Shown here: positions 4,004 through 43,088 of the stretch, one piece after another | Layout: every line of letters starts with the position of its first letter | Numbering within the stretch: the stretch's first letter is position 1 | IMG/VR virus record: IMGVR_UViG_3300033067_000992 | Location: 1 to 43,088 of that record | Length of the DNA: 43,088 nucleotides | From: a virus | Taxonomy: Duplodnaviria > Caudoviricetes | Reading direction: 5' to 3' (one strand) | Made by a program: the position numbers and the translations under genes | The notes under the pieces: generated by a model | The model's database searches: none | What the model saw: the letters and a program-made list of their open reading frames with translations, nothing else | Told to the model about the DNA's origin: nothing

Positions 4004-4043
4004 GCTATTGTTGCGCCCTATCCGCGCGCAACGTCAAGCGGCG

Positions 4044-4253
4044 TTAAAGTCGTTTCAGCCCTGTGATTTTTTTGATCGCCTCGCCCAGCTCCGGGCTGAT
4101 TCCGCGCTTGCCTTGCAGGATCAGCGTAATCAGCGCCGGCGAGACGTTAAGCTGCTTTGCAAGCCAAGACCGCTTTTGGCGATTGGCCCAGAGCCAGCGC
4201 TCTAGTGGCGACTCAAAGGGCGGCGGCTTAATCATGGCGTCAGTGTCCGTCAT
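4044..4253 (-). CDS. Cro-like XRE helix-turn-helix regulator
   Basis: 69 aa; RSWLAKQLNVSPALITLILQGKRGISPEL..AIKKITG; first gene of the leftward early operon. Confidence 0.85.
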   Translation of the reverse strand: MTDTDAMIKPPPFESPLERWLWANRQKRSWLAKQLNVSPALITLILQGKRGISPELGEAIKKITGLKRL

Positions 4254-12911: not shown

Positions 12912-12926
12912 TTTCGGTGCTTTCTG

Positions 12927-15856: not shown

Positions 15857-15868
15857 GGTGACTGCCGT

Positions 15869-16378
15869 TTATTTAACATCTTTCCAGCGCTTTCTTGTTC
15901 GGACTTGCCAAATATGCTTTGGGTCAACACTGTACCGTTTCGCCAGATCACCCGACGATTCTTCGCTTGATCGAATTGCGCACACATCTTCAACCGTTAA
16001 AGTAGCCTTTTTGCCGTGATTGTTGCGGCCCTTTCTGGCTCGGTCTTTATTATTGTCTCCTGCGGTTCCCAAAAAAAGATGATTTGGATTAACACATTTT
16101 TTGTTGTCGCAGTGATGGCAAACAAGTAGCGCGCCAGGCGCCACTCCAAAAGCCAATTCATAAGATACTCGGTGCGCTAAATGCCGCTTATACAGAAACG
16201 ACATCTTTCCATATCCGTTGGGATAGTAAGGCCCCTGCCATTCGAGGCAGTCGCCATTCAACCTAGACCTATTTGAAAGTAAACACTTCAACGAACAGTA
16301 CATGCGCGGCGACCTGGGGAGCGCCATTACAACGCCGCCGCATTCAAGGCACGTCGTCATTCCGCGCTTGAATCTCAT
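15869..16378 (-). CDS. HNH homing endonuclease with N-terminal Zn motif and C-terminal HTH
   Basis: CLECG..YCS.KC; CLEWQG....GYG...AHRVSY...VCHHCDN..CVNP.HLFLGT..DN..D...KGR; visibly lower GC. Confidence 0.92.
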   Translation of the reverse strand: MRFKRGMTTCLECGGVVMALPRSPRMYCSLKCLLSNRSRLNGDCLEWQGPYYPNGYGKMSFLYKRHLAHRVSYELAFGVAPGALLVCHHCDNKKCVNPNHLFLGTAGDNNKDRARKGRNNHGKKATLTVEDVCAIRSSEESSGDLAKRYSVDPKHIWQVRTRKRWKDVK

Positions 16379-16589: not shown

Positions 16590-16662
16590 GTATTGCGGGG
16601 CGTAATGCGGCAATACGCCGCACCACAGGCCGCTATACAATCCGCCATACGTTCCGCTATAC
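16590..16662. promoter_or_regulatory. Operator array of CCGCWATAC-like 9-mers with 12-bp spacing between divergent genes
   Basis: Reverse copies at 16590-16598 and 16602-16610; forward copies at 16630, 16642 and 16654; the last overlaps a GCTATACT -10-like box. Confidence 0.75.
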
Positions 16663-16691
16663 TAAGCGCATTGGAAATGGAGACATCCCCA

Positions 16692-17324
16692 ATGCGCTCT
16701 TTGAAAATCACAGACCTGCTTCGCAACGCCCCGCTCGTCGCCCTCACGTCAGCCGTATTGCTGGCGATGGAAGGCTTCGGATGGAGCTACCTCGCCCAAA
16801 CCAATGACCCGCTGCATGCCGTGCTTATGGCCTGCGTCGTGTCCGGTACGGGCCTTGTCGGCCTCGTCGCCTCCTACGTGGGCGCCGAACGCCGCCAAGA
16901 CCCCCGCCACAGCGTCCGCAGCGGCGCTTGGGTGGCGCAAGTGCTGGCCGTCCTGATGATGCTCCCTGGCATCGTGTTGGCCGCCGACAGCCTCGCCTTT
17001 CCCACCCAAGTCGCCAACGCCCGCAGCTACCTTGCTTCCGAAGAGCACGCCGCTGACCTTCAGGCTCAGCGGCTTGCTCAAGGCCAGCAAGAAATGGCCG
17101 AGGTAGCCATCAACCTTTCTCGCGGCACTATCCCGACGCGAGCCAGCTTCGACCTGGGCGCCGTCATCGCAGCCAGCTTCCTCTACATGGCCAACATGTG
17201 GGCGGCCTCGGCTCTTTGGCGGGCAAAGCCGGAAACTGCAACGGAACGCAAGCGCCGCGAGGCGCGCGCCGCCCGAGCCGCGAAACGTCCACAAGACATT
17301 CGCAAGCAACTCAAGATCGCTTAA
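16692..17324 (+). CDS. Four-TM membrane protein with basic C-terminal tail
   Basis: ATG after GGAGA; three TM helices, a polar loop, a fourth TM helix and an R/K-rich tail. Confidence 0.8.
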   Translation: MRSLKITDLLRNAPLVALTSAVLLAMEGFGWSYLAQTNDPLHAVLMACVVSGTGLVGLVASYVGAERRQDPRHSVRSGAWVAQVLAVLMMLPGIVLAADSLAFPTQVANARSYLASEEHAADLQAQRLAQGQQEMAEVAINLSRGTIPTRASFDLGAVIAASFLYMANMWAASALWRAKPETATERKRREARAARAAKRPQDIRKQLKIA

Positions 17325-17327
17325 CCT

Positions 17328-17360
17328 AAACGCCCCATGCTAACCCGTGGGGCGTTTTTC
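17328..17360 (+). terminator. Rho-independent terminator
   Basis: aaacgcccca-loop-tggggcgttttt directly after the stop at 17324. Confidence 0.75.
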
Positions 17361-21803: not shown

Positions 21804-22916
21804 TCAGAGCGCTCCGTAATCGACCATGAGCCAGCCCGCTGGATCGACGTGCACCGCATGCGCGGGCGCTTCCGTCGCCATGACGCCAAGCCGCAACGGC
21901 GCGGTCGCCGCATCCCAAAGGTAGCGATAATTCCACCACCTGAGCCCGTTTGCATCAGTGTGGTGATAGCTCACATCGCGCTTCAGGCGCGGATCAGAGA
22001 AGTGTGTAATCGCCGCCGCGCCCAAGTTCGACAGCGCGCTCCAAGGCCCGGCGGCGTTTTGATATTGCGCGTTATAGCGCGCCATCTGTTGCCCGAAGTT
22101 GTTGGCGTTTATGCCGGCGATGTCTGTCCCGGCCATCGTCGGGCTATTGGGTGCGCCAGGGTTGATGGAATTGACCTGATTGCCGTTCGCCAAGCCGATG
22201 ATGCGGTTGAGCGGATTGTCAATCGAGGCGTTCAGTTCGGCATTGTTGGCGCTGTTTTGCGTCTGCGCATCGCCCAAGTTCGTTCCGCGTTGACTCAAAA
22301 TCTCGGAGAGGTTTTGTCCTCGATCAGACATAGCCTGTTGCCGCGCCGCCAATTCATTGCCCGCATACGCATCGCCTACGCCCTTGGAAAAGGCCTGTTG
22401 CGACGAACCCCATGCATCGGACCCCGCGTTGATGCCTTGATTGGCCAACCGCGAATCCAGCGATTCCTGTCCGCGCGATGCCCACTCGCCAACGCCCCGG
22501 TTGAGCAATTCGCGCGTGCGCGCTTCGGAATCGGCCCCGAACCTGCCAAGCTGGCTGTTGATGTCGAGCGGCCCGCCCGTGGCCCCGTTCACGTCGAGGT
22601 GATGAGGATTGTAAGGGCCGCCAAGCAAGGCTGACGCTTGGTTTGTTTGATCAATGCCTAACTGCCCCAGCAAACTGCTTTGCTGCGTTTGCAGGTCCAG
22701 CAAGTGCTGCTGCTCGGGATTGAGCGTCGTGGTTTGCGTTGCTTGCCGGATACCGCCAGGGCCGGGCTGATAGCTGTAGTTCACCTGCCCGTAGGGCGAA
22801 TTGACGTTGGTGTTGCCATAGATTTGATTAGCGGCCGATGTCGCAAGGTTGCTGTTCGTTTGCGCTTGCGCGACGACATTGGGATCAGGCGGCCTGGGAA
22901 CGCTTGGCTTGCTCAT
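21804..22916 (-). CDS. DNA ejection/pilot protein with C-terminal intramolecular chaperone (peptidase S74-like) domain
   Basis: MSKPS.P.PPDP..AQ N-terminus, Q/N/G-rich; C-terminal FSDPRLKRD...Y.Y.WD.....GVMA.E....V.......VDYG.L. Confidence 0.8.
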   Translation of the reverse strand: MSKPSVPRPPDPNVVAQAQTNSNLATSAANQIYGNTNVNSPYGQVNYSYQPGPGGIRQATQTTTLNPEQQHLLDLQTQQSSLLGQLGIDQTNQASALLGGPYNPHHLDVNGATGGPLDINSQLGRFGADSEARTRELLNRGVGEWASRGQESLDSRLANQGINAGSDAWGSSQQAFSKGVGDAYAGNELAARQQAMSDRGQNLSEILSQRGTNLGDAQTQNSANNAELNASIDNPLNRIIGLANGNQVNSINPGAPNSPTMAGTDIAGINANNFGQQMARYNAQYQNAAGPWSALSNLGAAAITHFSDPRLKRDVSYHHTDANGLRWWNYRYLWDAATAPLRLGVMATEAPAHAVHVDPAGWLMVDYGAL

Positions 22917-25597: not shown

Positions 25598-26268
25598 AGC
25601 CGCAAATCATCCTCGGCCGGGGTTTCCAGCACTTCCTCGACCGCGACAGAGCGATTTTTGCGCGTCGGCTTGTCAAAGCCCATGTTGTTTTGCTTTTGTA
25701 GCAGTTGCTTCACTTGCTCTTGCAATTCCGCGATTTGCCCGTCTCGCTTGGCAAGCTCCCGCGCCAGCTTGGCGTTTTGCGCTTCGGTCTTGGCCTCGCC
25801 CAAATAGGCGATGGCCTTGGCGCGCCACTCGCGGCCGCCACGGCGGAAGCAGGACTCAATCTGTGAATCCGACAAGTCGGCCACCTGCTGCACCGTGTAC
25901 ACGTTGGACGCCTTCAGTTGCGCCACCAGCGCCACGTCCATCCCCGGCCATTGCTCAAGCGGGGTGCCGCGCTCGGATGGCGATTGCCCCTTCATCCAGG
26001 CCAGAAACGGCTCCTTGAAGCGCTGGTATGGACCCTCGTCGCGCTTGATCGTGCCGTCGTCCTTGGTGCGCTGAATTTCGTAAATCGGGCCATCGCCGCG
26101 CGAACCCGCGACAATCACCCGGCAATGCACGGCGCGGTCATAGACCGGCGGACCGTCCATTGAGGCTTTCTCGTCCTTGATCGCCACTTCCTCGAAGAAC
26201 AGCAGCAGCGGCGGCGTGCCTGGGGGCGCGTCGGCCTCGCGAAACGGGATCGGCAGGGATTCAGCCAT
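25594..26268 (-). CDS. Conserved head-region protein
   Basis: GTPL..WP......LK...V.TV.Q.A.LSD motif plus a C-terminal coiled coil. Confidence 0.7.
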   Translation of the reverse strand: MAESLPIPFREADAPPGTPPLLLFFEEVAIKDEKASMDGPPVYDRAVHCRVIVAGSRGDGPIYEIQRTKDDGTIKRDEGPYQRFKEPFLAWMKGQSPSERGTPLEQWPGMDVALVAQLKASNVYTVQQVADLSDSQIESCFRRGGREWRAKAIAYLGEAKTEAQNAKLARELAKRDGQIAELQEQVKQLLQKQNNMGFDKPTRKNRSVAVEEVLETPAEDDLRL

Positions 26269-27640
26269 TAACTCGCTCTACATAAAAGACCACATGGCCC
26301 GGATGATTTTCGGCGTAGCGGACGGCGCCGTAGTGCGCCAACAGCCGCTGCCACCAGTCATAGTCATGCACCGATAAGTGCAGCTTGTGCCCGATCAGAG
26401 CGCCGCACGCATCCTCGCCGGTATCAATGCGGAAATACACATGCCGCGCCGCCAGAAAGATGTTGCTCAACACCTTACTCACATCGCCGGGCGGGATGTG
26501 CTCCATGACATCGGTGCAAAAGCCGTACTCAGCTTGAACCGCCAGCCGCTCTGTCAAGTCATGCTTTACAAATGACAAGCCCAGCGCCGCCTCGTCGCGG
26601 GCGTTGGCCGCGAAATCCACCAGCACCGGATTGAGCCCCGCCGCCGCCATCGCCACCGAAGCCCGGCCAGTGCCCGCGCCAAAGTCCAGCACCCTCGCCC
26701 CGGCCGGCGGCTTTACCACGTCAAGGAACGTGCCCACCTCGATCTCGCCCGGCGCTACGGCGCGGTATTCGTCGCGCGCCCACAACGCCTCGTACTTGTC
26801 GCGCTCACTGGCGATGGCGTTGTAAGTGTCCGGCAACAGCCCGGTTCCATGCACCGTGATCGCGCAGCCCAATTGCTTCAGCTCATGGGCCACAGCGGGA
26901 AACACTTCGGCCTGCTGGCGCATGGTGAAGCTCGCCACATAGCGCTTGCCGTTGCGTTCCAAGGCGATGCACGGCTCGCCATCGTTCATGGGCTGGCTAA
27001 AGGCATGGGTCGCGTCGTCGCGATGCGACGAGTCGTAGCCAAAGCAGTGAATGTCGCGAAAGCCCATCGTGTAGGCCAAGCCCATCGCCACGTTGCCAAC
27101 GCTGGAATGGCCGATCACGATGGCGTAGTCCGTGTGGTGCTCGAATTGCGGCAAGCGGTCATCGCCCACATGCACCAGCATGGCGTCGTCTTGCGCCTCG
27201 AATAAAACCGGGTCGACTTGGCTGGCGAAGATGTGCTGCGACGCAGGCCCCAGCAAATCCACATTCTCAGGCCGTGCGTCGGCAATGAATTGGTACACCG
27301 GAATGATCGCCCGTCCGGCCAGGAAGCGCGCCGCGCCGTTGAGCGCGAACACCACCGCGCCAGCCCGCGCCAGGGCGCGAATTTTCTCAATATCGTCGCC
27401 AAGGCTAGGCCCTGACCCACACAGCACCGCTACGCCATTGTGAGCGCCTGTGCAGCGCACCCAAGTCTTCGCCGTCGCCGCGTTGGCGTTGATGTTGGCT
27501 AGCAGCCGATCGTCGGGCGTATTGCATTCCATAACGATCGGAATGAGCAAATCAGCGCTCGCTTGTGGGTGGCGCACCCGTGCGAGCATGTCGTGGGAAA
27601 GCAGCGGCGGGATTGCTCCCGCCGCCTTAGTTTCCTGCAT
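26261..27640 (-). CDS. Fusion of a DUF115/Maf (MptE-like) domain and a class I SAM methyltransferase
   Basis: N-terminal half LCGSGPSL, ALNGA, SSVG..A..LAY.MGFR.IH.FGYDSS; C-terminal half VLDFGAGTG and CTDVMEHIP. Confidence 0.85.
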   Translation of the reverse strand: MQETKAAGAIPPLLSHDMLARVRHPQASADLLIPIVMECNTPDDRLLANINANAATAKTWVRCTGAHNGVAVLCGSGPSLGDDIEKIRALARAGAVVFALNGAARFLAGRAIIPVYQFIADARPENVDLLGPASQHIFASQVDPVLFEAQDDAMLVHVGDDRLPQFEHHTDYAIVIGHSSVGNVAMGLAYTMGFRDIHCFGYDSSHRDDATHAFSQPMNDGEPCIALERNGKRYVASFTMRQQAEVFPAVAHELKQLGCAITVHGTGLLPDTYNAIASERDKYEALWARDEYRAVAPGEIEVGTFLDVVKPPAGARVLDFGAGTGRASVAMAAAGLNPVLVDFAANARDEAALGLSFVKHDLTERLAVQAEYGFCTDVMEHIPPGDVSKVLSNIFLAARHVYFRIDTGEDACGALIGHKLHLSVHDYDWWQRLLAHYGAVRYAENHPGHVVFYVERVNG

Positions 27641-28128
27641 CAAGTGACGCGGCCTTGCATATGTGGCCGCATCAAATTGACCTTCCCAGTGCCCACCGTG
27701 GCGGAGCAGATAGCCGCCGTCAGCGCTCCCTGGATTTCCTTACCCGACGCGCTTGCCGCGATCAGGCCGACCGTCTTGCAGCCAACCGCCAAGCCGGCGG
27801 CAAACGACAGCGCGGAGGTCTTTTTGAAGATCGCCACGCCGCTGATTTGATACCAGCCATAATTGGACGCCACGCACGCGCTCATGGCCACCGCCACCGG
27901 TTCGGGCTTGTTAGTCCCGACCGGCGCCAGCGCCGTGATGTGCGTTGACGGGTTGAAGGTGACAAGTGAGCCAACCACCGTTGAGGCGATGCCTTGCAGG
28001 TAGACGAACTCGCCTTCGCCATAGGTTGGGTCTTTGCCCTTGGTGATCGTGCCCAAGGGGAAGATTTGGGTGGTGCCGAAGCCCGTCAGATCGACGCCGA
28101 GGAGCTGGCCGGTTGCGTAATAAGTCAT
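27640..28128 (-). CDS. Capsid decoration/minor head protein
   Basis: Directly after the capsid gene; D...G.GEFVYL and YGWYQI.G motifs. Confidence 0.75.
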   Translation of the reverse strand: MTYYATGQLLGVDLTGFGTTQIFPLGTITKGKDPTYGEGEFVYLQGIASTVVGSLVTFNPSTHITALAPVGTNKPEPVAVAMSACVASNYGWYQISGVAIFKKTSALSFAAGLAVGCKTVGLIAASASGKEIQGALTAAICSATVGTGKVNLMRPHMQGRVT

Positions 28129-31568: not shown

Positions 31569-32236
31569 TCCAAAAGCATCAAGGTTTCCTCATCGTCTTC
31601 GTCATCATGCGCGACCGCCAATGCAGGCGATCGTTTAGCGGCAAGCTTGACAATCTCCACCGGCGCCGATGCCGGCTTCGGATGATCGAGCGGATTGCCC
31701 GCCTGCGCATCATAGGCCGCGCCAAGCTCGGCGCGGATATTTTCTTCAAGCCATTTGCCAGCCCGGCGCTTCCGATCTGAACCGGATTCCGGCCCCCAGT
31801 AACCGCTGCCCGCGTTGATAACCGCGCCACCGCTCGCAGCAAGCGCGTCATCCGCTTCCGTAACAGCCAAGTCGGCGGTTACGGTTGACGACACCAACGT
31901 TGCGTCAGCAGACAGCGCATCGTCGGCTTCCGTCGCCGACAGGGCCGCCGAAAGCACCAGCACCGCAGCGGCAGCAAGCGCGTCGTCCGCCTCGGTAGCC
32001 GCCAGAGTGGCGATCAGCAGCAGCGCCGCCGCCGCCGTCAGCGCATCGTCGGCCTCAGTGACCGCCAGCGCCGCAGAGAGCGCCAGCATCGACGTGGAGG
32101 CTAGAAGATCGTCCGCCTCCGTGACCGCCAGATTAGCGGTCAGCGCTCCGCCTATGTCGGCGGTAGTTGGATCATAGAGCCGAACGTCAGCCCGGTTTGC
32201 GTCGCTCGGAACTGACCTTAGAAAAATATCAGGCAC
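31556..32236 (-). CDS. Accessory virion-region protein with five ~21-aa TEADD.L repeats
   Basis: Repeats are visible in the translation; DDEDDEE.L.L C-terminus. Confidence 0.7.
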   Translation of the reverse strand: MPDIFLRSVPSDANRADVRLYDPTTADIGGALTANLAVTEADDLLASTSMLALSAALAVTEADDALTAAAALLLIATLAATEADDALAAAAVLVLSAALSATEADDALSADATLVSSTVTADLAVTEADDALAASGGAVINAGSGYWGPESGSDRKRRAGKWLEENIRAELGAAYDAQAGNPLDHPKPASAPVEIVKLAAKRSPALAVAHDDEDDEETLMLLDWAA

Positions 32237-33763: not shown

Positions 33764-36165
33764 TATTCAAAGCCCTCGACTTTGCCGTCCTTGCCGCGCT
33801 TGACCGTCTTGGGACGCGCCAGATACTTCAGCCCTTCGCCGATCGCCTTCAGCCCTTCGCCGATCGCCTCCCCGGACTTGTCTTCTTTCGGTTCGGGCGG
33901 CGCTTCGGCCTCCGCTTCGGCGGCCGCAGCTTTGCTCGACTCGCTGGCTTGGTGCTGAAGTTCTTTGTCCTTCATTGCGCCGGCGGCGTCGATCTTGTGG
34001 TGCTCAATCGCCGAACGGTCATTGATTTCTTGGCCGCGCAAATCCAACTCACGCTGCTTGATCTCTAGCTCCTTCGCCTTCAGCAAGGCGTCGATCCGAA
34101 GCTTTTGCTTATCCAACTCGAACCGCATCTTCTCGATCTCGGCGTTTTGAGCCGTCTCGCCCGCCTTCAACTGAAGCTCTTGGCCCTTCAATGCCTGTTC
34201 GCTCTGAGCCGTCACCGCGTTGGCTTGCAGCTCTTGGCCCTTCAAGGCCAGATCGCCCTTCGCCCGTTCGACTTCGGCCTGGACCTTCATCATCTCCGGG
34301 TCAGGCGGCGGCGGGCCCTTCGGCTTGGCGGCTGCCTCAACCGCCTGCTCAATCACCTGCTCAAGCTGATCGACCTTATCGAAGCGCCGCACCCCAAACA
34401 GCAGCAATTCGCCCACCAGCTTGGCCGCTTCCGGCGACGAAGACGCCATCGGCGCCGCCGCTTCCATGAATTGCACCATCGCCGTCATGAACTCGGTGGC
34501 GACCTGCTTCTCTTCCTGCATGTCGGGTTCGAGCGTCGAATCCGTCTCAACGTCGATGCGGAAATTACGTGACGCATCGTCACGCAGCAGCTTCTCAACC
34601 TGCGCCAAGAATTGCGCCACCATCTGCTGTTGCTGCTGCTGCGCGGCCTGCGCCTGCAATGCCTGTTGCGCCTGGGCCTGCATGGCCGCCACTGGGTTCG
34701 GCGGCTGGCCCGGTTGCTGTTGCTGGGGTGGCCCGGCCTGCGCCGGCGGCGCTTGGGGCGGCGGCGGTTGCGGGACGTATTTGGCGATCAACTCCGCGTC
34801 CAGGCCAGCCATCTGCGCAATGGTGCGGAATTGGAATTGTTCGCTGATCACTTCGGCCTTCAGCCGCATGATGTCAGCGGCGAACCGCATCACGTCTTTC
34901 TGAATACGCCGCACCCGCAGCGAGCCCCACTTGGCTTTGATGCCTTGTGCCGTCGCAGTCTCGTTGGGGTCCGTTGATCCCCGCAGAATGTCGCCAATCC
35001 CACTCACCTCGTAGAGCGTCTGCTTGGCTTGGTCGCGAACTTCGTAGAGGCCCTTGAGCACTTCCATGACGATTTCAACCGGGAAGAACTCAACCCGGCC
35101 CTTGGCCCCGCCGCCTTCCGCGAACATCGCCCAATTCTTCACCGCGATCATGCGGTTATCGGACGCTTCCAGCATGGTCGCCAACTCGGCGCTCTCGCTG
35201 GCGTATATGCCCACCACCTTGAGCGCTTTTTGCAGCACCCCGATGCGCTCGCTGCACCGGTTCAGCTCTTCGGCTTGGTCCTGATACAGCGCATAGTCCG
35301 GCGTCGGGATCAGGCTCTTGCTGGTGGTCGTCGCCAACAGCGGGCGCGGGCATGGCCAGAAGTCGCGGAACTTCACCGGCGGCGGACGCATCCCGATAAT
35401 GGCGTCCTCGTCGCTGCCCGGCGCGACATAGATGACTTGGCGGCTATCCTTGTCCCAGACTTCCCAAATCTTGCACTTGGAGCGCTCGTCCTTCAGCCCC
35501 TCTTGCGATTTGTCGCCTTCGTTGCTCACGTCCATCGTGAGCTTCGCCGCCACGCTGGGGTCTAGCTCAAGCTGTTGCAGCCATGCCCCAATCTCGCTGC
35601 GCGTCTTGTAGAACGCCCGCGCTACCCAGCGATTCTCATTCCAGGTCCGGCAAACGCTATGCAGGAAGTCCAGCCACGGCACATACTCAGCCGTCACGTC
35701 CTCATAGGCCAGATGCCCGCCCACGATTTGCGGCTCGTAGAATACCCACACCTGACCCCGGCCAGGCAACAGCCTGTCCCGCACCGCTTGGTCGATTTGG
35801 TTGTCGAAGTCGTAAAGCTCGCAGCTCGTCTCTAGGCAGCGCTCAAGCAGCATGGACGCCAGCCGCGCGATTGGGTCGCGGTCGTGGTAGCGCCGCACCG
35901 CGCGGGCCTTCGGGGTGTTCATGTACACCGCTGGCCGCAACGTCTCGACGTTGGACCACAGAATATTGAACTTGCGCGAGCGGTCAGCCGTTATGTCGCG
36001 CTCGTCGTTGTATATCTTTTCGACCTTCTTGGCGCGGGCCTCCCATTTGGCCTGCTGCTTCTGGCTCGCGGCGATCTCGGCGCACCATTTGCGCGCCAGC
36101 CCCGCCATATCGGCGGGCGGCTTGTCGAGGTCTTCGGTGCTTGCGGCCGGAACCTCGTCAGCCAC
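33763..36165 (-). CDS. Portal protein
   Basis: 800 aa after TerL; FNILWSNVE.L.PA.Y...P, WEVWDK, F.PCPRPL, ETATAQ.IK..W and FRIDVETDST motifs. Confidence 0.92.
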   Translation of the reverse strand: MADEVPAASTEDLDKPPADMAGLARKWCAEIAASQKQQAKWEARAKKVEKIYNDERDITADRSRKFNILWSNVETLRPAVYMNTPKARAVRRYHDRDPIARLASMLLERCLETSCELYDFDNQIDQAVRDRLLPGRGQVWVFYEPQIVGGHLAYEDVTAEYVPWLDFLHSVCRTWNENRWVARAFYKTRSEIGAWLQQLELDPSVAAKLTMDVSNEGDKSQEGLKDERSKCKIWEVWDKDSRQVIYVAPGSDEDAIIGMRPPPVKFRDFWPCPRPLLATTTSKSLIPTPDYALYQDQAEELNRCSERIGVLQKALKVVGIYASESAELATMLEASDNRMIAVKNWAMFAEGGGAKGRVEFFPVEIVMEVLKGLYEVRDQAKQTLYEVSGIGDILRGSTDPNETATAQGIKAKWGSLRVRRIQKDVMRFAADIMRLKAEVISEQFQFRTIAQMAGLDAELIAKYVPQPPPPQAPPAQAGPPQQQQPGQPPNPVAAMQAQAQQALQAQAAQQQQQQMVAQFLAQVEKLLRDDASRNFRIDVETDSTLEPDMQEEKQVATEFMTAMVQFMEAAAPMASSSPEAAKLVGELLLFGVRRFDKVDQLEQVIEQAVEAAAKPKGPPPPDPEMMKVQAEVERAKGDLALKGQELQANAVTAQSEQALKGQELQLKAGETAQNAEIEKMRFELDKQKLRIDALLKAKELEIKQRELDLRGQEINDRSAIEHHKIDAAGAMKDKELQHQASESSKAAAAEAEAEAPPEPKEDKSGEAIGEGLKAIGEGLKYLARPKTVKRGKDGKVEGFE

Positions 36166-37508
36166 TAGACGCGCTCTTCATCGTTCCTACGTCGCCCAAG
36201 TGGCCCCACAATATCGTTGAATGTTGCTGTTGACGGCGCGCCCACGATAAGCGTGCGCTCCGGTCGTTTTGCCGGCGGCGGCGGCGCCATCTCGCGCCAC
36301 GCCATCGCCAGATAGCGGAAAGCGTCCGCCGTGTGACTTGTCCAATCGTGCCGAGGCGCGTCCTTGAACGCCCGCGTCTTCTCATCGAAGTCGGCCCGGT
36401 ATTGCCGCAGCGCCTCGATCCCATCGGCGCACTTGAACCGGTCAAACCATACAATCGGCATGGTCAGCCGCGCGGCGTTGATGCCGTCGCCAATCTTGTG
36501 ATTGGGCACCAGCTTTGGCTTGCGCCCCAGCTCTTGCAGCGTCTCAATCCGCGTCCGGCCAGTGCCTAGCTCGCGCACCTTGGCGTCATGGGGAACCCAG
36601 TCGTCGCCCCAGCGGTATTTCAGCGCCGACAGCACTGCGGCGTAATGCGCCAGCCCGTGCCCATGCGCCTCGTAGTGGCCAATGACCCTGATCTCGCTGG
36701 CCACGACCTGGAACATCCAAATTGCCGTGCTGTCGCCTATGCCCAAATCCCAGGCCGTATGCACGGGTAGGTCTGGATTATAGGGCAGCTCGCAGACGCG
36801 GCCTTCTCGCTCGGCTTCCGCGATCTCTTTGCCGAAGTAGGCGCCGAGGATAGCCGCTTCGAAGCTGCATTCAAACTCTTGCTGATACTGCTCTGGCGTT
36901 GACGACCGCCTAGCGTCGTCAAGCTCCTCTTGCGGTAAGATGCCCGTCTCGGACGCGCGCAGTACGTCAAAAAACCAGCGCTCCGGGTCGCCCCTGGCCT
37001 CTTCGCACTTGTCGAAGAATTCGTTGTGGCCCTTGGGCGTGCCGATGAACGTTGCCCATCCGCCCCGATCAGCCAGCATTGGCCGGATGACCTCGCCCCA
37101 CACGCTTGGGCGCATGTCGGCATATTCATCGAGCACCACACCATCAAGGTAAGCGCCGCGAAGCCGGTCGGGGTTGTCCGCACCGTGAATACGGATGCGT
37201 GCGCCGTTCAGCAACTCAACCCAAAGCTCGCTCTCATTCTTGTCGGCGATGATCGGCTGAGCGAAGCGCTTCAGGTATTCCCACGCCACTTCCTTGGCCT
37301 GACTTAGGAACGGCGCGACGTAGGCGTAGCGACCGTGCGGCAACGTCAATTGGATGGCCCGCTTGATCTTATCGTTGATGCAGCCAACCGTCTTGCCGCA
37401 CCGGCGGTGCGCCACAATCGCCGCCCACCGCTGAGTGCGATTGTGATATGGGATAAAGACACCGCGCGGGCTGTACGGGAGAACTATCCGTCGCTGGGCG
37501 GCTGCCAC
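36165..37508 (-). CDS. terL: Terminase large subunit
   Basis: AHRRCGKT (Walker A), GVVLDE (Walker B), GTPKG, QEFECSF, AWDLG..DST and HDW.SH.ADAFRY. Confidence 0.96.
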   Translation of the reverse strand: MAAAQRRIVLPYSPRGVFIPYHNRTQRWAAIVAHRRCGKTVGCINDKIKRAIQLTLPHGRYAYVAPFLSQAKEVAWEYLKRFAQPIIADKNESELWVELLNGARIRIHGADNPDRLRGAYLDGVVLDEYADMRPSVWGEVIRPMLADRGGWATFIGTPKGHNEFFDKCEEARGDPERWFFDVLRASETGILPQEELDDARRSSTPEQYQQEFECSFEAAILGAYFGKEIAEAEREGRVCELPYNPDLPVHTAWDLGIGDSTAIWMFQVVASEIRVIGHYEAHGHGLAHYAAVLSALKYRWGDDWVPHDAKVRELGTGRTRIETLQELGRKPKLVPNHKIGDGINAARLTMPIVWFDRFKCADGIEALRQYRADFDEKTRAFKDAPRHDWTSHTADAFRYLAMAWREMAPPPPAKRPERTLIVGAPSTATFNDIVGPLGRRRNDEERV

Positions 37509-37939
37509 GTAACCACAAGCGCTCCGCCGCCCTGCCCGCTCAATTCATGCTCCCTGCGGTCGCGCCATTCATCGGGTCGGCGATTCTTCATCCAAAATAT
37601 CGCCGCCGTGGTATCCGGGGCGTGGTGCTCCACGTATTGCGCGTACACCGGCGTCTTAGCGCCAGCCGGCATGAAAATCTTGACCGCCTCAACCCGATAG
37701 CCAACCGCCCGCTCATACAGCGAGCGCTCTACTCGGTCGTCCGCCACCTCTTTGCCAGCCTTTAGGGCATGTAAAAACTCTTCGTGATCGTTCTTCCAAT
37801 TGTAGAGGGTGCGGACACTGACGCACAAAAGCTCCGCAAGCTCTTGGTCCGTAAAGCCAATCTGGCAAGCACGTCGCGCTATCTCGGCGAACTCTGGCTT
37901 GTAGGCGCTCGGCCGACCGTTGGGGTTAGGTTTTTTCAT
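37484..37939 (-). CDS. terS: Terminase small subunit
   Basis: GRPS.Y, TD.ELA....VS..TLYNWK..H.EF, VE.SLY.RA.GY and PDTTAAIFW.KNRRP..WRD. Confidence 0.92.
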   Translation of the reverse strand: MKKPNPNGRPSAYKPEFAEIARRACQIGFTDQELAELLCVSVRTLYNWKNDHEEFLHALKAGKEVADDRVERSLYERAVGYRVEAVKIFMPAGAKTPVYAQYVEHHAPDTTAAIFWMKNRRPDEWRDRREHELSGQGGGALVVTWQPPSDG

Positions 37940-38388
37940 TGGGGTTGCGCCTGGGGACACACGCGACCGTCCGCCAGGCGCTCGCCTGGGACGCAGCGTG
38001 TGGGTGGGTTGAGTTGTTGTGTCACCGCCCCCGTTATCGCCATCTCGTGTCCGTAGCTGGCGAAGTTTTGGGAATAGGTGGCCAGCCATATCGCGCCGGC
38101 CGCGAGCATCAGGGCCGCGCCTGTGATTAGGCCAACGGCTAGGCCCAGGTTGCGCGCCCCGTGCGCCACGGCTGCCTCGTGCTTGGCTGTGGGGCGGGTT
38201 TTAAGCTCGGCGCGGAGGTGGCCGATCTCGGTGGCCTCTTCCATTGAGCCCACGCCTAGGGTCTTACACCAGTCCGCCCGCTCCGCCACGCGGCCGGCCT
38301 TGATGGCGTTGGCGCGGATGGCGTCGTCGCGCTGCTTCAGCTTGGCGGTGGCGTTGAGCGCTTGCGGGAGGGGGGTGGGGTCGCTCAT
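37936..38388 (-). CDS. Hypothetical membrane-anchored protein
   Basis: 150 aa with one TM helix; 4-nt overlaps. Confidence 0.65.
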   Translation of the reverse strand: MSDPTPLPQALNATAKLKQRDDAIRANAIKAGRVAERADWCKTLGVGSMEEATEIGHLRAELKTRPTAKHEAAVAHGARNLGLAVGLITGAALMLAAGAIWLATYSQNFASYGHEMAITGAVTQQLNPPTRCVPGERLADGRVCPQAQPQ

Positions 38389-38744
38389 GAGGGCCGCTCG
38401 TCTGGCTGGCGCCCCTGGGACGCGACCACATGCGCCCACCCGCGCTCAAAGCAATGATCCGCCACGCGGCGCGCTTCGTCGACCGTCGCGCCGCCCGACA
38501 TTGCCTCTGTGCTGAGCATCGCGCAGCCGGTTATGATCACTTCCTCGCTGGGGCGAACAATGCCTTGATCATGACCCCATCGCATCCAAGCTTGGATTAC
38601 CGCCGTCAAAACATCGGCGCCGCTGATCGTTTCGGCTGGAAATTGCTCCGCCAAATCCATGCGCACAACGTCGAATATCACGGATAAGGCCGTGTCGCGA
38701 AGGTCTGAGTCAACCTTCTCTCCGCCAGGGGCAACGAGTGTCAT
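38385..38744 (-). CDS. Hypothetical protein
   Basis: 119 aa with 4-nt overlaps at both ends. Confidence 0.65.
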   Translation of the reverse strand: MTLVAPGGEKVDSDLRDTALSVIFDVVRMDLAEQFPAETISGADVLTAVIQAWMRWGHDQGIVRPSEEVIITGCAMLSTEAMSGGATVDEARRVADHCFERGWAHVVASQGRQPDERPS

Positions 38745-39082
38745 TCAGGCCAGATCAGCACAATGGGGACCACGGCCAGCGCTAGGCATACCAGCGCGCC
38801 TAGAGCGCCCCAGGTAAACGCCTCAGCGCGGGTCAAACTTGCACTGTAACGGGCGTTACGGGCCGGTGTTCGCCGCAGGCCATGACATCGGCGTTCGTGG
38901 GCCTGTTCGGCCAGTTGGGCGCGTTCGTCTAGAAGCGCTTGGTGGCGTTCGTTGGCGCGATCGAGCGAGATGCGGTCCGCTTCATGCACGGCGCCCGCGC
39001 ATTCGTCGATGACGGCGCGCGCCTGCTTGATCTCGCCGGCAAGGTCGATCGACCGTTGCCAAGTGGCGTTGGACAGGCTCAC
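38741..39082 (-). CDS. Hypothetical protein with C-terminal TM helix
   Basis: 113 aa; coiled coil then hydrophobic tail. Confidence 0.65.
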   Translation of the reverse strand: MSLSNATWQRSIDLAGEIKQARAVIDECAGAVHEADRISLDRANERHQALLDERAQLAEQAHERRCHGLRRTPARNARYSASLTRAEAFTWGALGALVCLALAVVPIVLIWPE

Positions 39083-39186
39083 CGCGAGCGGCCTGCTTTG
39101 GGAGCAACCTTGGGGGCGGCGCGCTTGGCGGCCTTCTTGGCGGCCTTGCGGCCATTTTTTCGCATTGTCGCAGTGAGTTTTGCCAT
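39079..39186 (-). CDS. 35-aa basic, histone-H1-like peptide
   Basis: MAKLTATMRKNGRKAAKKAAKRAAPKVAPKAGRSR; GAGAGGA RBS; GTGA overlap with the next gene. Confidence 0.7.
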   Translation of the reverse strand: MAKLTATMRKNGRKAAKKAAKRAAPKVAPKAGRSR

Positions 39187-39206
39187 GGTTTTTCCTCTCT
39201 GGTTGG

Positions 39207-39543
39207 TTCCAGCGGCCGGCGGAGCGGGAAAAGGGGCGGCTCCGGTTGAAACGGGCAGGATTTTGCCCTGAGCGGGATGCTCATGAATGCCGCCGGGCTT
39301 ACACCGCCGGTCGCTGGAATTGGGCGGAACGCGCCGTGCCCCCTCGTAACACGAGGCACGCATGGAGCCATCCTTACGCATCGGGCGAACCTTGGTTTGC
39401 CGATACGCGCGTTCCGCTTGGGTTTCGGCGGGCGAGCTGGACAGGTGCCTTGGGGTGAACCGTCTCTGTGAGGTTGAGACCCTGCCGCCGTCCGCCGAAC
39501 TGAAAAGGCGCGTCCGAGTGAGTTGGCTTGCCCCGGACGCGCC
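39207..39543. ncRNA. Putative multi-domain structured non-coding RNA (G-U pattern favours the plus strand)
   Basis: Four consecutive closed domains: 39207-22/39304-19, 39322-33/39408-19, 39424-34/39489-99 and 39507-16/39534-43; the first three contain nested hairpins. Confidence 0.7.
39503..39543 (-). terminator. Possible intrinsic terminator at the start of the late operon
   Basis: Perfect 10-bp GC stem ggcgcgtccg/cggacgcgcc followed by TTTT on the minus strand. Confidence 0.5.
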
Positions 39544-39585
39544 AAAGTGAGCTTGCCTGAACGTGGGGTGATTTGTGCCAGGGGG

Positions 39586-40584
39586 TCAAGCGGCATTTTG
39601 GGCCGCTTCAGGCTTGTAGGTCCGGGCGATCCATTGGCTCAACGCGAAGGGGATTTTGGCAATCTTGGCGCTGGCGGCTTTGCGGGCGGGGGATTTGCTG
39701 GACGTGACGCAGTGGTTGGCGTCAAACCATTCCGCGCCCGCGCCCTTGCGCCCTTCGCGCTTGGATTGCCCGCCCTGCCTTGAGGGGCTTGACGGATCAG
39801 AAAACCAATCGCCACCGTGTTTTCGCGCTTCGCGCAGCTCAATGCTGGTGAACCGCGCGCCTTCGCCGGGCGCGGTGCGGCGGTTATTGCGATCCGCTAT
39901 CGTGTTGAAGCCTTGCCCCGGAACGTGGCGGGGATCGTCGGGATGATACCACTTCAGGCCGCCAACCTTCACGCCCTCTCTGGCGCCGCGATCTTTACTG
40001 TCCGCAATCGCAAACCACGATCCGGTCCCGTGCGCTGTGCCGTCCGGGTTGAACTTTTGCGCTTGCAGCGTGTGCGGCATCAGCGCCGGCACATCGCCCC
40101 AAAGGTAATAGCTCCCGAAATTCCACTTTGCCCGCCCCACCCACGGAACCGCGCCGCGCACGTTCTCAACCACCAGCGGGATATGGCGCCCCGCCGCCGC
40201 GCTGGCCTCGCGCTGGATGCGGAAACAGGCGTTGAATAGCGCCGTTAGCTCCGCAATGGTACGCGAGCCTGTGTAGCCTACGGGGAAGTCACCCCGACCC
40301 CTCAGCGCCGCCGCGATTCGCTTCCCCCGCGTCCACGGCATCGCCATGTAGCTAAATTCCTGGCAGGGAGGAGAGGCGACGATTAGGGCCGCATCCTTGA
40401 ACGCCGCGCCGTCCAACGTCAGCACGTCTTGCAGCACCAGCGTCGCGGGGTATTTTTCCTCGCCGTATTCGTGCGCCTCAATATCGTAGCCGGTCACGGC
40501 GTAGCCTTCGGCCAATAGCCCTTCCGTCCAGCCACCTAACCCGGCGAAAAGGTCAATGGCGATCGGGCGCTCACCGCCGCGCAT
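39586..40584 (-). CDS. Orphan DNA (cytosine-5) methyltransferase
   Basis: IDLFAGLGG (motif I), SPPCQEFS (IV), VENVRG (VI) and a C-terminal AKIPFALS helix. Confidence 0.88.
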   Translation of the reverse strand: MRGGERPIAIDLFAGLGGWTEGLLAEGYAVTGYDIEAHEYGEEKYPATLVLQDVLTLDGAAFKDAALIVASPPCQEFSYMAMPWTRGKRIAAALRGRGDFPVGYTGSRTIAELTALFNACFRIQREASAAAGRHIPLVVENVRGAVPWVGRAKWNFGSYYLWGDVPALMPHTLQAQKFNPDGTAHGTGSWFAIADSKDRGAREGVKVGGLKWYHPDDPRHVPGQGFNTIADRNNRRTAPGEGARFTSIELREARKHGGDWFSDPSSPSRQGGQSKREGRKGAGAEWFDANHCVTSSKSPARKAASAKIAKIPFALSQWIARTYKPEAAQNAA

Positions 40585-41101
40585 TGTGCCGCTCCAGGCC
40601 CCGGTCGCAATCGTAGTAGTATCCAGCCATCGCCATGAGCACGAGGCGCGTAAACGGCTTGGCGGGGCGGGTGTCTGGGATCGGCTCGCGGCCCGGCCCC
40701 ATCTTGCGCCATACGCCCATGCCGACGGCGATCTCTGGCAGCGTGTGTAGCTGGACGATCCATTCGACGCACCGCGCCGCCAGCGTGGCGTTGGTGCGGG
40801 TCCAGGCGGCTTGGCGCAGCCCTTCCAGGGCGCGCACAGCGCTGACCTTGGCGGCGAGGCCGTAATCGGTTGAGCCTCCGTCCACGGGGATGTCATCGAA
40901 TTGGCGGGACATGCCGTCGAACGCCGCCGCGCAGTCGCGCACGGCGCGGCATCCGGCCAGCCACTCCTCTTCGCTGATCTCGCCCTTGAGCGCCTTCACG
41001 CACCACGCCTTGCGCGGGGCTTGCTTGCCCTCAATTAGCTCGTTGCCTTGCTCGCGGACCCGCTCCCATTCCAGATCGTAGGCCCGCTGCAGAATGCTCA
41101 T
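40571..41101 (-). CDS. DUF6456-like putative late transcription regulator
   Basis: L.G.IS...W.AG....D...VDGG pattern and late HTH-like segment; occupies the Q position before the late operon. Confidence 0.55.
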   Translation of the reverse strand: MSILQRAYDLEWERVREQGNELIEGKQAPRKAWCVKALKGEISEEEWLAGCRAVRDCAAAFDGMSRQFDDIPVDGGSTDYGLAAKVSAVRALEGLRQAAWTRTNATLAARCVEWIVQLHTLPEIAVGMGVWRKMGPGREPIPDTRPAKPFTRLVLMAMAGYYYDCDRGLERHNARR

Positions 41102-41511
41102 CGTGTTTGCCCCCTCAACGGCACGCCCAACGATCTCAACGCGGCAACGGCCTGGTCGAAGTCGTTGCATACCAGCGTAGGGATGCCACATGCGCCGAGT
41201 TGTTCAATCACGCTTTTCTGAGCATCGCTAACGCGCGGCTTGGCTTTCGAGCCGGGCTTGGGCGGGGCCTTTAGCTCGATGGCGATGACCTTAGCCGCAA
41301 TCCCTGGCCCGCCCAAAACCGGCCCATCGTGATGCCCGCATAGGATCAAATCCGGCATCCCCGCCAGCACGCCCATCGCCTTCAACACGCCGGCCTCAGC
41401 CTTACTCCGTCCGCCGCCGTTGGGGATGTGAAACACCATCCACGGCGGCGGCAAGGCAAGGCGCAGGAACGCCACAAGCTGGCGCTGGAGCGCTTCCTCG
41501 GGGCGGTTCAC
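41098..41511 (-). CDS. VRR-NUC domain nuclease
   Basis: E..LQ, FHIPNGG.R...EA..LK.MGVLAG.PDL, IELK and S.AQ motifs. Confidence 0.9.
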   Translation of the reverse strand: MNRPEEALQRQLVAFLRLALPPPWMVFHIPNGGGRSKAEAGVLKAMGVLAGMPDLILCGHHDGPVLGGPGIAAKVIAIELKAPPKPGSKAKPRVSDAQKSVIEQLGACGIPTLVCNDFDQAVAALRSLGVPLRGQTR

Positions 41512-41657
41512 CCTAGCCAACCAATCCAGCGGGCGACGATCACGCACACAACGACAAAAACAAATCGCCCGAAGGTTTCTGCGACGAACAAGACCGACTT
41601 CATCAACGTACTAGACACGCTCACTTCGCCCACACGCGCAGCTTGTTTGTAAGCCAT
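41508..41657 (-). CDS. Small membrane peptide (49 aa)
   Basis: Manual translation ends FGRFVFVVVCVIVARWIGWLG; TAATG and GTGA overlaps. Confidence 0.5.
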   Translation of the reverse strand: MAYKQAARVGEVSVSSTLMKSVLFVAETFGRFVFVVVCVIVARWIGWLG

Positions 41658-42007
41658 TAATCGGCCACCCGGCGCACTTGCTCCGCGAACGGATCGTATT
41701 CGCGGGCGATGCGAAATTCGTAAAACTGATCCGGCAAGTCAAAGCTCTCATGCGGCGTCGGCGCGTCTTGAATCAGTGCGCGCGGGAAGATGGCATAGAA
41801 AATCGCCATGCCGTTTGGCGCATCTTCGCGTTCCAGCACTTCGCCGTCCGTCACCACATGGTGGTGCCCGCTCTCGCTATGGCTGATGATGACTTGGCCA
41901 CGCGCGTTGCGATCGGTCGCGGGCTTGGTTTTGACGTTCGTGGGGATGGCGTCGATCTTGATGATCGTCACCTCGCCTTGCGCACCGATGATGGTTTTCA
42001 TTTTCAT
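41657..42007 (-). CDS. Conserved partner of DUF6745 proteins
   Basis: AQGEV, HSESGHHH, H....LP...Y....REYDP.....R.V.D; ATGA-coupled to the upstream gene. Confidence 0.75.
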   Translation of the reverse strand: MKMKTIIGAQGEVTIIKIDAIPTNVKTKPATDRNARGQVIISHSESGHHHVVTDGEVLEREDAPNGMAIFYAIFPRALIQDAPTPHESFDLPDQFYEFRIAREYDPFAEQVRRVAD

Positions 42008-43088
42008 GTTCTCCGTGGGGGGTGAGCATATTCGCTCTGTGGATCGCCAATGCGCCATGCCTGCGCGGAGATGGCGGTCTCGATGGGGAGATTGTCAATG
42101 TCGCTGATGCGCGGCACGCCTTCGACAATCAGGCCGTTGCGCGGGCATCGCGCTTTGAGGAATCGGCCTGGCTCGGGAAGGCCGGGAAGCGTCAACTCAA
42201 TCAGTTGGCCCACGTCTTCGCTGCCGCTGTCGTGGATCACTTTGGCTTCCAGCACATCCAGCATTTTGGCCCAACCGACAATGGCGGCGCCGGCGGCGCG
42301 CTGCTCTACGTTTTTGCAAGCGATCACTTCACGCGGATCTAGCGTGGCACGCCCCTCAATCCAATGGGCAGGCACTCTAGTCCCATGCCATGAATAGAGC
42401 GCGAATGAATCGACATAGCGCATGGCGGGTCCATTTTCGCTATGCAGCCTCCCGCCCTCATCGAGATTGAGAACATCCGGTCGGTCGCAGATAATTGCGA
42501 GCTTTTCGTAGAGGTATACCCAACCACACGATCGCACCAGCACCAAGTGAGCATCCAGGGCCGCTTCGTTTTCTCGCGGCCTCCACCCCACTCGTCTGCC
42601 GCAATCCAACCATTGCCATAGGTAATCCCATTGGCCGTAAAACCATGTGCCATACACACTAAGTCGATTGGCCCCGAGATTGGCCTCGAGATAGGCCCTG
42701 AGATAGGCCCAGAGATTGGCCCAGAGATTGGCCCTGAGATTGGCCCCGAGATTGGCCTCGAGATTGGCCCTGAGATTGGCCCAGAGATGGTCCCAGAGAT
42801 TGGCCCTGAGATGGTCCCAGAGATTGGCCTCGAGATTGGCCTCGAGATTGGCCCCGAGATTGGCCCCGAGATTGGCCCCGAGATTGGCCCCGAGATTGGC
42901 CCCGAGATTGGCCCTGAGATGGTCCCAGAGATTGGCCTCGAGATTGGCCTCGAGATTGGCCCCGAGATTGGCCCCGAGATTGGCCCCGAGATTGGCCCCG
43001 AGATTGGCCCCGAGATTGGCCCTGAGATGGTCCCAGAGATTGGCCTCGAGATTGGCCTCGAGATTGGCCCCGAGATTGGCCCCGAGAT
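42004..43088 (-). CDS. C-terminal part of DUF6745-like protein (begins at 328)
   Basis: The frame stays open through the repeat into GQWD..W, CGW...Y....IICDRP......GRLH.ENGPA..Y.D.F.LY.WHG.RVP and N.EQR.A......GW. Confidence 0.85.
   Translation of the reverse strand, partial: LGANLGANLEANLEANLWDHLRANLGANLGANLGANLGANLGANLEANLEANLWDHLRANLGANLGANLGANLGANLGANLEANLEANLWDHLRANLWDHLWANLRANLEANLGANLRANLWANLWAYLRAYLEANLGANRLSVYGTWFYGQWDYLWQWLDCGRRVGWRPRENEAALDAHLVLVRSCGWVYLYEKLAIICDRPDVLNLDEGGRLHSENGPAMRYVDSFALYSWHGTRVPAHWIEGRATLDPREVIACKNVEQRAAGAAIVGWAKMLDVLEAKVIHDSGSEDVGQLIELTLPGLPEPGRFLKARCPRNGLIVEGVPRISDIDNLPIETAISAQAWRIGDPQSEYAHPPRRT
42666..43088. repeat. 12-bp tandem repeat (~35 units) with a 108-bp higher-order period
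   Basis: GAGATTGGCCCC variants; the block starting gccctgagatggtccc recurs at 42803, 42911 and 43019. Confidence 0.95.

Follow-up and report, generated by a model that had tools for sequence, protein, structure and literature searches.

What is the role of 390 nucleotides (nt) that separate the early from the late genes of a phage, that encode no credible protein and that fold far better than shuffled sequences on either strand? The question is raised by positions 39191 to 39580 (here called the element) of virus record IMGVR_UViG_3300033067_000992 (Duplodnaviria; Caudoviricetes). This record is complete at 43,088 bp, was analyzed in full and is referred to as the window; all coordinates are window positions. 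A first-pass annotation, made from the letters alone, had described the locus as a large multi-domain RNA that apparently folds on the antisense (plus) strand, and had offered a complex late-leader antitermination element as an alternative. Here, we show that the stretch is structured and non-coding, and we present evidence which argues that it works in the sense (minus) orientation. Our preferred reading, which is still tentative, is that of a block of several hairpins that serves as terminator and leader where the late operon begins, acting on the gene-sense strand and passed only by polymerase that has been modified by an antiterminator.

A structured, non-coding element at the early/late boundary

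All credible genes near the element lie on the minus strand. In the order of transcription, a replication O-like gene and other early genes are followed by the genes for a VRR-NUC nuclease, a 176-amino acid (aa) protein and a C5 DNA methyltransferase, then by the gap, and then by a 35-aa open reading frame (ORF), three small proteins, terS, terL and the portal gene (Table 1). This order bears out the first-pass placement of the element at the early/late boundary, between replication/nin-like genes (VRR-NUC, methyltransferase) and the late genes. The gap had also been called the longest without a credible gene, but on a crude gene map gaps of similar size are found at 12912-13314, 15857-16374 and 21956-22375. 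ORFs within the gap gave no Pfam or PHROG match, a 71-aa ORF among them had no homologue, and natural variants of the element carry indels of 1 and 2 nt, i.e., not multiples of three. On these grounds, the element is non-coding.

The inverted repeats previously reported for domains 1, 3 and 4 were all present, at 39207-39222/39304-39319 (16 nt, 94% complementary), 39424-39434/39489-39499 (11 nt, 91%) and 39507-39516/39534-39543 (10 nt, perfect), respectively. That of domain 2 is perfect over 11 nt (39324-39334/39407-39417), but the 12-bp stem claimed for this domain (39322-39333/39408-39419) requires G-T pairs at its outer end. The inner hairpins named at the same time were recovered in the minimum-energy folds. 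The inverted arms enclose spacers of 54-81 nt and differ among the domains, and no direct-repeat family links the domains, between which only short matches of 9-22 nt were found.

Both strands of 39200-39550 were folded and compared with 100 dinucleotide shuffles. None of the shuffles was as good as the native sequence on either strand, the energies being -172.1 kcal/mol for the minus strand (z -6.26) and -179.9 kcal/mol for the plus strand (z -3.73). Each domain was also significant alone on both strands, with z-scores for domains 1 to 4 of -6.03, -4.07, -2.68 and -4.90 on the minus strand and of -4.85, -3.91, -2.30 and -5.14 on the plus strand; the energy per domain ranged from -25 to -64 kcal/mol. 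When the whole genome was scanned on both strands with 300-nt sliding windows (n = 856) and energy was regressed on composition, 39201-39500 on the minus strand was the most extreme of all (z -3.83), with a z-score of -2.19 for its plus-strand counterpart. The ribosome-binding site that follows domain 1 stays open in the fold. The inverted repeats, the shuffle test and the lack of any ORF match together uphold the multi-domain structured non-coding stretch that had been proposed.

Rfam 15, which covers group I/II introns, tmRNA, 6S, pRNA, Y RNA, riboswitches and ROOL/GOLLD, gave no match at the gathering score across the window. At E values of up to 10, just three weak matches were obtained in 38900-39900, all of them outside the element, and ARAGORN detected no tRNA or tmRNA gene in the window. 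The earlier statement that the locus could not be matched to a tRNA, tmRNA or riboswitch was thereby borne out.

Terminator polarity and natural variants argue for the sense strand

The whole genome was scanned on both strands for strict terminators, defined by a perfect stem of at least 7 bp with at least 60% G+C, a loop of 3-20 nt and TTTT within 2 nt. Only two sites were found in 43 kb: domain 4 on the minus strand, and 17330-17355 on the plus strand. In the sense orientation, domain 4 begins 43 nt past the methyltransferase stop and fits the definition of an intrinsic (Rho-independent) terminator, with a G+C-rich stem-loop, an immediate U tract and a position downstream of a gene. A scan limited to loops of 8 nt or fewer misses this site because its loop is longer. 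On the plus strand of the element, neither a U-tailed terminator nor a promoter was found.

The case for the plus strand had been based on non-Watson-Crick pairs, all of which were said to be G-U on that strand. This holds for three of the five single mismatches in helices common to both strands, but one of the others is C-A and one A-A. The minimum-energy folds contain 24 G-U pairs on the plus strand vs 7 on the minus strand. The plus strand is G+T-rich, however, and its shuffles also fold about 20 kcal/mol better than those of the minus strand, so that the excess of G-U pairs is weak evidence for plus-strand folding.

Relatives of the element were found only in contigs from public metagenomic runs, and one of these runs, X1, contains the window sequence itself and may be the run from which it came. 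A 756-nt contig from a second run, X3, covers 38990-39507, and a 217-nt contig from a third, X4, covers 39271-39489. In X3, there are 22 substitutions (14%) in the adjacent coding bases 39038-39190 (153 bases), and 11 substitutions (3.5%) and four small indels in the element (39191-39507; 317 nt); further coding pieces of this phage differ by 5.8%, 6.5%, 8.8%, 15% and 16%. No substitutions were present in 39385-39507 or, on another X3 contig, in 39526-39580. Thirteen bases (39342-39354) at the tip of a hairpin in domain 2 account for eight of the 11 substitutions and for the majority of the indels.

The five substitutions outside this tip in X3 and X4 (39260, 39263, 39296, 39321 and 39363) all affect bases with an unpaired probability of at least 0.97 in the minus-strand ensemble, in which 31% of bases are unpaired (chance about 0.003). 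In the plus-strand fold, three of these five lie in G-U pairs, and two of the three pairs (39263 and 39321) are broken. For the four-way junction of domain 2, folding predicts one and the same structure in the window, X3 and X4 forms on the minus strand, but not on the plus strand.

The first-pass annotation had read the locus as a plus-strand RNA that is antisense to the late leader and regulates either the late genes or the methyltransferase. In favor of this reading are the lower absolute energy, the G-U pairs and G-T mismatches described above, and the X4 form, in which two C>T changes in the hairpin tip give plus-strand G-U pairs and 39363 T>C converts a plus-strand G-U into a G-C pair. 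Its z-score and genome rank are, however, weaker; its shuffles fold better simply owing to the G+T-richness of the strand; two of its three substituted G-U pairs are destroyed; and its fold of domain 2 is lost in X3. Antisense folding is not supported, given that the sole U-tailed terminator, the z-score, the genome rank and the variant substitutions all favor the minus strand, and we consider such an RNA to be the least probable of the readings discussed here. The sample of variants is small and its closing stems are invariant, so that it falls short of proof by covariation; as they stand, the variants favor selection on sense-strand pairing and argue against a plus-strand-specific RNA. Taken together, these data argue that the element works in the sense orientation.

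The element is an optional module with sharp edges

Comparison with relatives of the flanking genes delimited the element on both sides. Four relatives of the methyltransferase gene (L004, L005, L006 and L042) align with the window through the stop codon to 39581 and then run straight into the next gene (…GCATGACCCCC…). The window retains a relic of the start of that gene, with TTG for ATG, after which the element begins. This relic, at 39581-39592, reads ATGACCCCC in the relatives and TTGACCCCC here, a change that removes the start codon and creates the hexamer TTGACC. The hexamer overlaps the methyltransferase stop and has no good -10 after it. In X3, the flank also switches at 39580: a single contig (229 nt, depth 4.6) joins 39580 to 40573 via 19 other letters, such that this phage appears to have no methyltransferase gene at that point and to carry its element 17-19 nt past the stop of the 176-aa protein gene. 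On the left, identity to X3 falls sharply at 39190, 4 nt before the start codon. Finally, a 42.6-kb contig of run X1 and a second contig in run X2 match the small ORF (39115-39190) and the end of the methyltransferase gene (39605-39649), and omit the 414 bases between them (39191-39604).

Three arrangements were therefore seen: 176-aa protein gene, methyltransferase, element and late genes (the window); 176-aa protein gene, element and late genes (X3); and methyltransferase and late genes with no element (a distant cousin). By these alignments, the element is a discrete, optional module with sharp edges. It is also dispensable, given that the methyltransferase gene and the small ORF stand side by side without it in one relative.

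A catalogue of 10,006 candidate viral structured RNAs has been described (PMC10690425). In our own searches, copies of the element were limited to three near-identical ones, in runs X1, X3 and X4. No homologue was found by blastn against phages or plasmids, and a blastn comparison with 115 viral loci (59 anchored on the methyltransferase, seven on terS and 49 on terL) gave no match inside 39191-39580. Exact 22-mer scans of viral, metagenome and genome collections returned no matches, nor did searches for the exact arms of domain 1 in genomes and of domain 2 in viral contigs. The whole records of five relatives contained no copy of the element or of a domain, and no second copy of any domain was present in the genome itself. 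A single-sequence covariance model of domain 2, run on the window and on 99 of the 115 viral loci, retrieved only itself. The number of 11-mers shared with other intergenic regions was close to chance level, and one apparent match was to a coding 12-nt array. To judge from these comparisons, the element fits no Rfam 15 family and has no homologues outside a narrow group of phages. The motif A(A/G)CTCACT, direct repeats of which lie before and inside domain 4, is uninformative, having been derived from the same sites that it detects.

REPIN/MITE-type palindromes and BIME-like clusters are intergenic units of about 75-115 nt in which inverted arms flank a spacer; they are arranged head to tail, occur in many copies and share their arms. 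The element resembles them in that each domain consists of two inverted arms around a spacer and the domains are packed head to tail. Furthermore, the element is optional, it occupies a mosaic junction at which the methyltransferase gene also comes and goes, and near-identity that extends to the loops suits recent transfer. It might thus be functionless or selfish palindromic DNA, i.e., a MITE- or REPIN-like cluster or a recombination scar, the conservation of which would reflect that transfer. Unlike such DNA, however, every domain is single-copy with arms of its own and has no match in the viral, metagenome, genome, phage and plasmid collections searched; the ends of the element show neither a terminal inverted repeat nor a target duplication; and the five substitutions outside the tip avoid paired bases. 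We regard a functionless or selfish origin as improbable. A mobile palindrome of the MITE/REPIN type in particular is not indicated, the domains being single-copy in the genome and three patterns giving no exact matches in the viral, metagenome and genome collections, although copies with diverged arms may be present in the host genome.

The same findings bear on a second possibility, namely that the element is a stand-alone, trans-acting structured RNA. Such an accessory, "moron"-like module would be made from the sense strand or processed from the operon transcript, and would act as a decoy or sponge against defence or as a regulator, with the hairpin tip as its specificity determinant. This would be in keeping with sharp edges and with presence in some relatives and absence from another. 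It would likewise suit an element that is more conserved than the adjacent genes, loops included, that presents three alleles of one hairpin tip on an invariant scaffold, and that has a long closing stem in each domain, as do many stable RNAs. On the other hand, neither a promoter belonging to the element nor, on either strand, a terminator at the 3' end was found; the terminator-like hairpin is at the 5' end instead. No site complementary to the variable tip exists elsewhere in the phage genome, and the lack of an Rfam match and of copies outside this phage group also speaks against it. On balance, a trans-acting RNA seems unlikely.

Lastly, the element could act as DNA and have no RNA role, by providing binding sites or cruciforms for a late activator, or a signal for packaging, replication or recombination. 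Both strands fold almost equally well by construction, the loops are conserved alongside the stems, and the repeats of the A(A/G)CTCACT-containing motif would be compatible with this view. Arms that are 54-81 bp apart are, however, unlike operator or parS palindromes, and neither iterons nor an A+T-rich unwinding region were found. In addition, the element is separated from terS by about 1.1 kb and does not lie at a contig end, it is absent from a relative, and the U tract after domain 4 is strand-specific. A role at the level of DNA is accordingly held to be highly improbable.

Resemblance to late-gene control by antitermination

The gene upstream of the methyltransferase encodes a 176-aa protein for which 38 relatives, all unnamed, were found among 5.8 billion clusters. 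None was found in phage records or in the genomes of the five relatives, and no sequence match to Q proteins was obtained. An AlphaFold2 model built on a 10-row alignment was of fair quality (pLDDT 80, pTM 0.71). Foldseek against the PDB gave nothing significant, the first-ranked structure being phage 21 Q (6jny_B; E 1.5, TM 0.39/0.47). With VIA-align, Q21 (6jnx_P) came first of 48,161 chains (Z 5.9, rmsd 4.7, 115 residues aligned) and was followed by a run of sigma-factor region 4 domains (Z 5.0-5.4). Against BFVD, a set of predicted viral structures, the top four Foldseek matches had E values of 0.004-0.025, and the second of these was a phage "DUF6456 domain-containing protein" (E 0.009, TM 0.51/0.46, 160 columns). 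The nearest named clusters in the ESM Atlas were also DUF6456, with a feature score of 0.93 and TM scores of 0.57-0.60 that lie under the tool's own bar. The modeled fold makes a Q21/DUF6456-type factor a lead, and the chances that the protein is one are about even.

In lambdoid phages such as lambda, P21 and the Stx phages, late control involves the Q gene, the promoter PR', a short leader and the terminator tR', which lie before the lysis and packaging genes. Transcription from PR' is terminated immediately downstream unless it is antiterminated, according to PMC7547250. The present locus is similarly placed, with replication/nin-type genes before it and lysis, terS and terL after it; on the sense strand, the late operon is guarded by a strong intrinsic terminator, here a predicted one; and in the X3 arrangement, a gene for a small helix-turn-helix protein, the best solved-structure match of which is Q21, lies directly upstream. 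It differs in that no sigma-70-type promoter or Q-binding element was found, in that about 300 nt of additional closed domains come after the terminator rather than before it, and in that the candidate protein has no sequence homology to Q and is separated from the element by the methyltransferase gene.

A parallel in build may be offered by gene transfer agents. GafA, the product of a gene annotated as DUF6456, is described as the direct activator of the Rhodobacter gene transfer agent (PMC9765227; PMC9638019). In the GafZ/GafY system of Caulobacter crescentus (Tran and Le 2024), GafZ, which corresponds to the C-terminal part of GafA, is described as a Q-like antiterminator with a sigma-like helix-turn-helix that loads between -35 and -10 (PMC11150451). 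The strong terminator terGTA, located close to the head of the cluster, is made up of three GC-rich repeats of 150 bp, each containing imperfect inverted repeats, and GafZ allows polymerase to pass it (PMC11150451). From these accounts, terGTA is, like the element, large (about 400-450 bp), G+C-rich and non-coding, is built of units with imperfect inverted repeats and lies near the start of a head-tail/structural operon; its antiterminator is of the GafA family, and DUF6456 provides the nearest named clusters and models of the 176-aa protein. In the same accounts, however, the 150-bp units are direct repeats, whereas no sequence relationship links the four domains here; terGTA is located after the first gene of its cluster; and termination at the element is at present a prediction.

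BrrG of the Bartonella gene transfer agent BaGTA is a Q21-like protein, recognized only by its predicted structure, that by antitermination lets transcription of the capsid operon proceed through an 864-bp leader (bioRxiv 10.1101/2024.11.20.624540). A Q21-like protein by predicted structure, combined with a long non-coding leader that contains a terminator before capsid/packaging genes, is thus common to that system and this one, and the BrrG leader attenuates expression. There, the predicted terminator is weak (-6 kcal/mol) and the promoter has been mapped, unlike in the element, where the energy of every domain is far lower and no promoter is mapped.

The put RNA of HK022 and the nut sites of lambda are cis-acting structured leader RNAs of about 15-70 nt that lie upstream of the terminators they suppress. 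The element would share with them a cis-acting structured RNA in a phage operon leader that is tied to antitermination, as is proposed here. Its structured domains are, in contrast, downstream of the terminator, and no motif of the boxA or boxB type was identified.

We favor late control as the explanation of the element because it has the same place, size, composition and build as the Q/tR', terGTA and BrrG systems, together with a canonical terminator in the right orientation. The late-leader antitermination element first put forward as an alternative thus becomes the preferred account, on the strength of the sense terminator in domain 4, the place of the element, its low divergence in X3 relative to coding sequence and the 176-aa protein upstream. 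Under this reading, transcripts from the replication and methyltransferase genes would stop at domain 4, and domains 3 to 1, which have no U tract, would perhaps assist termination. Late expression would then depend on antiterminated polymerase, with the 176-aa protein as the predicted candidate antiterminator, or on an unrecognized promoter located where the element starts at its 5' side. Domains 3 to 1 would then give the late transcripts a stable, structured 5' leader, with 6 nt between it and the ribosome-binding site of the first late gene.

Several observations weigh against such a stop-and-leader block. No sigma-70-like promoter, the one promoter type scanned, was found on the minus strand in 38600-40000 or in 36000-43088, nor was a loading site for an antiterminator identified. 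Domain 4 is the sole textbook terminator of the element, the stems of domains 1 to 3 not being followed by a U tract, and the count of G-U pairs favors the opposite strand. The loops are almost as conserved as the stems and one tip is hypervariable, neither of which a plain terminator explains. The variants are metagenomic contigs, and the joint seen in X3 comes from the one short contig mentioned above. As for the 176-aa protein, it has no Pfam, NCBIfam or PHROG match; the DUF6456 hidden Markov model (Pfam PF20057) matched nothing in the six frames of the window even at E 10, the Caulobacter vibrioides control being positive; and the structural matches of its model are modest (Z below 8; E 1.5 with Foldseek), with values that are common for helical models. 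Among relatives, the distant cousin has the methyltransferase and the small ORF adjacent without the element. Just 4 of 34 terL-anchored relatives carry a strict terminator in the sense orientation in the 3 kb before terL (antisense in 1 of 34), and the gaps upstream of the late genes in two relatives (L074 and L080; z -1.15 and -1.88, respectively) are not unusually structured and hold small ORFs.

Table 1. Coordinates of the element, its domains and the neighboring genes in the window
Feature	Position	Strand	Remarks
Whole element	39191..39580	minus	Non-coding module of 390 nt, bounded by the methyltransferase stop codon and by the Shine-Dalgarno/start of the first late gene
Domain 1	39207..39319	minus	16-bp closing stem, inner helices and two hairpins; most significant domain; ends 6 nt before the ribosome-binding site
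Domain 2	39322..39419	minus	Three abutting hairpins enclosed by an 11-12-bp stem; folds as a four-way junction on the sense strand
Hypervariable hairpin tip of domain 2	39342..39354	minus	Three versions in three phages, including 1-2-nt indels
Domain 3	39424..39499	minus	Long irregular hairpin with 11-bp closing stem; no differences in X3 or X4
Domain 4	39498..39543	minus	Perfect 10-bp G+C stem (12 bp in the fold), 13-17-nt loop, then directly TTTTCAGTT; intrinsic-terminator-like
Shine-Dalgarno GAGAGGA	39194-39200	minus	Ribosome-binding site of the first late gene
35-aa Lys/Ala-rich basic ORF	39186-39079	minus	First gene after the element; overlaps the start of the next gene (GTGA); good ribosome-binding site
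C5 DNA methyltransferase gene	39586..40584	minus	Inserted module between the 176-aa protein gene and the element; absent in the X3 phage
176-aa protein gene	40571..41101	minus	Candidate late-gene antiterminator/activator (predicted); sigma-region-4-like helix-turn-helix
VRR-NUC nuclease gene	41098-41547	minus	

Neighboring genes and other features of the genome

Two of the three small proteins encoded between the 35-aa ORF and terS carry a membrane helix. The nearest named relative of terL is that of Rhodoferax phage P26218 (47% identity). For a 113-aa protein no viral relative was found, and the other late-operon proteins had almost none. A tiny Lys/Ala-rich ORF opens the string of late genes in both the window (35 aa, 39079-39186) and L074 (about 41 aa, at about 3965-4093). 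The 5' part of the 35-aa ORF is also retained in the cousin that has no element, and in the X3 version the first 12 or so codons are far more diverged than the remainder. Of three pattern searches for this small ORF, two were empty and one gave 14 loci, which were unrelated repeats of Ala/Lys codons.

The window contains two DNA methyltransferase genes and a methyltransferase-like domain in a protein of the structural region (2854-3678, 26261-27643 and 39586-40584). Near the 3' end of the methyltransferase gene that adjoins the element, about 50 bases (39643-39700) are found again, at high summed depth, in numerous contigs of runs X1 to X3 that are otherwise unlike one another. These bases are 78-91% identical in methyltransferase genes whose proteins share just 40-55% identity.

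Three repeats were observed elsewhere. A 12-nt tandem array of GATTGGCCCCGA occupies 42666-43088 and 1-110, with about 35 copies at one contig end and nine at the other; it is probably within this array that the record is closed on itself or that the assembly was interrupted. Read on the minus strand, the repeats share the frame of a DUF6745 gene (42004-42657) and would encode xANL tetrapeptide repeats at the N-terminus of its product. A 15-nt unit, GCGGGCGCCAACCTC, is repeated 16.6 times at 4765-5013, within a minus-strand ORF of 104 aa (4726-5040) next to the divergent early region. This ORF would encode a pentapeptide-repeat protein, for which the family matches were weak PHROG ones only. 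In the structural gene region, a 126-nt unit is repeated 1.8 times (75% matches) at 31913-32144.

The second site returned by the strict terminator scan, at 17330-17355 on the plus strand, lies directly after a plus-strand gene (16593-17324) that is embedded among minus-strand structural genes. The segment 16401-16800 was the second most structured in the sliding scan.

Implications for late-gene control in phages

The mechanism that we favor is itself of a known kind. A new class is a more speculative proposal, and one that we think quite doubtful: a portable "late-gate" RNA cassette, composed of the terminator, three closed RNA domains and the ribosome-binding site, that is exchanged horizontally and acts in cis. 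Recognition by an antiterminator or a host factor would be made phage-specific by its variable tip, in the manner of boxB loops for N proteins, and if this were true, co-infecting relatives could not open each other's late genes.

At the level of method, the analysis indicates that an orphan structured RNA in a phage can be assigned to a strand by means of terminator polarity and a few natural variants. At the level of biology, the gating of late genes is textbook knowledge for lambda and has only just been recognized in alphaproteobacterial phage-like elements, i.e., GafZ with terGTA, and BrrG. This phage would be a compact natural case, in which the stop block, the candidate antiterminator and the inserted methyltransferase are separate, swappable modules. 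Were the variable tip shown to determine specificity, the element would represent a novel type of regulatory RNA.

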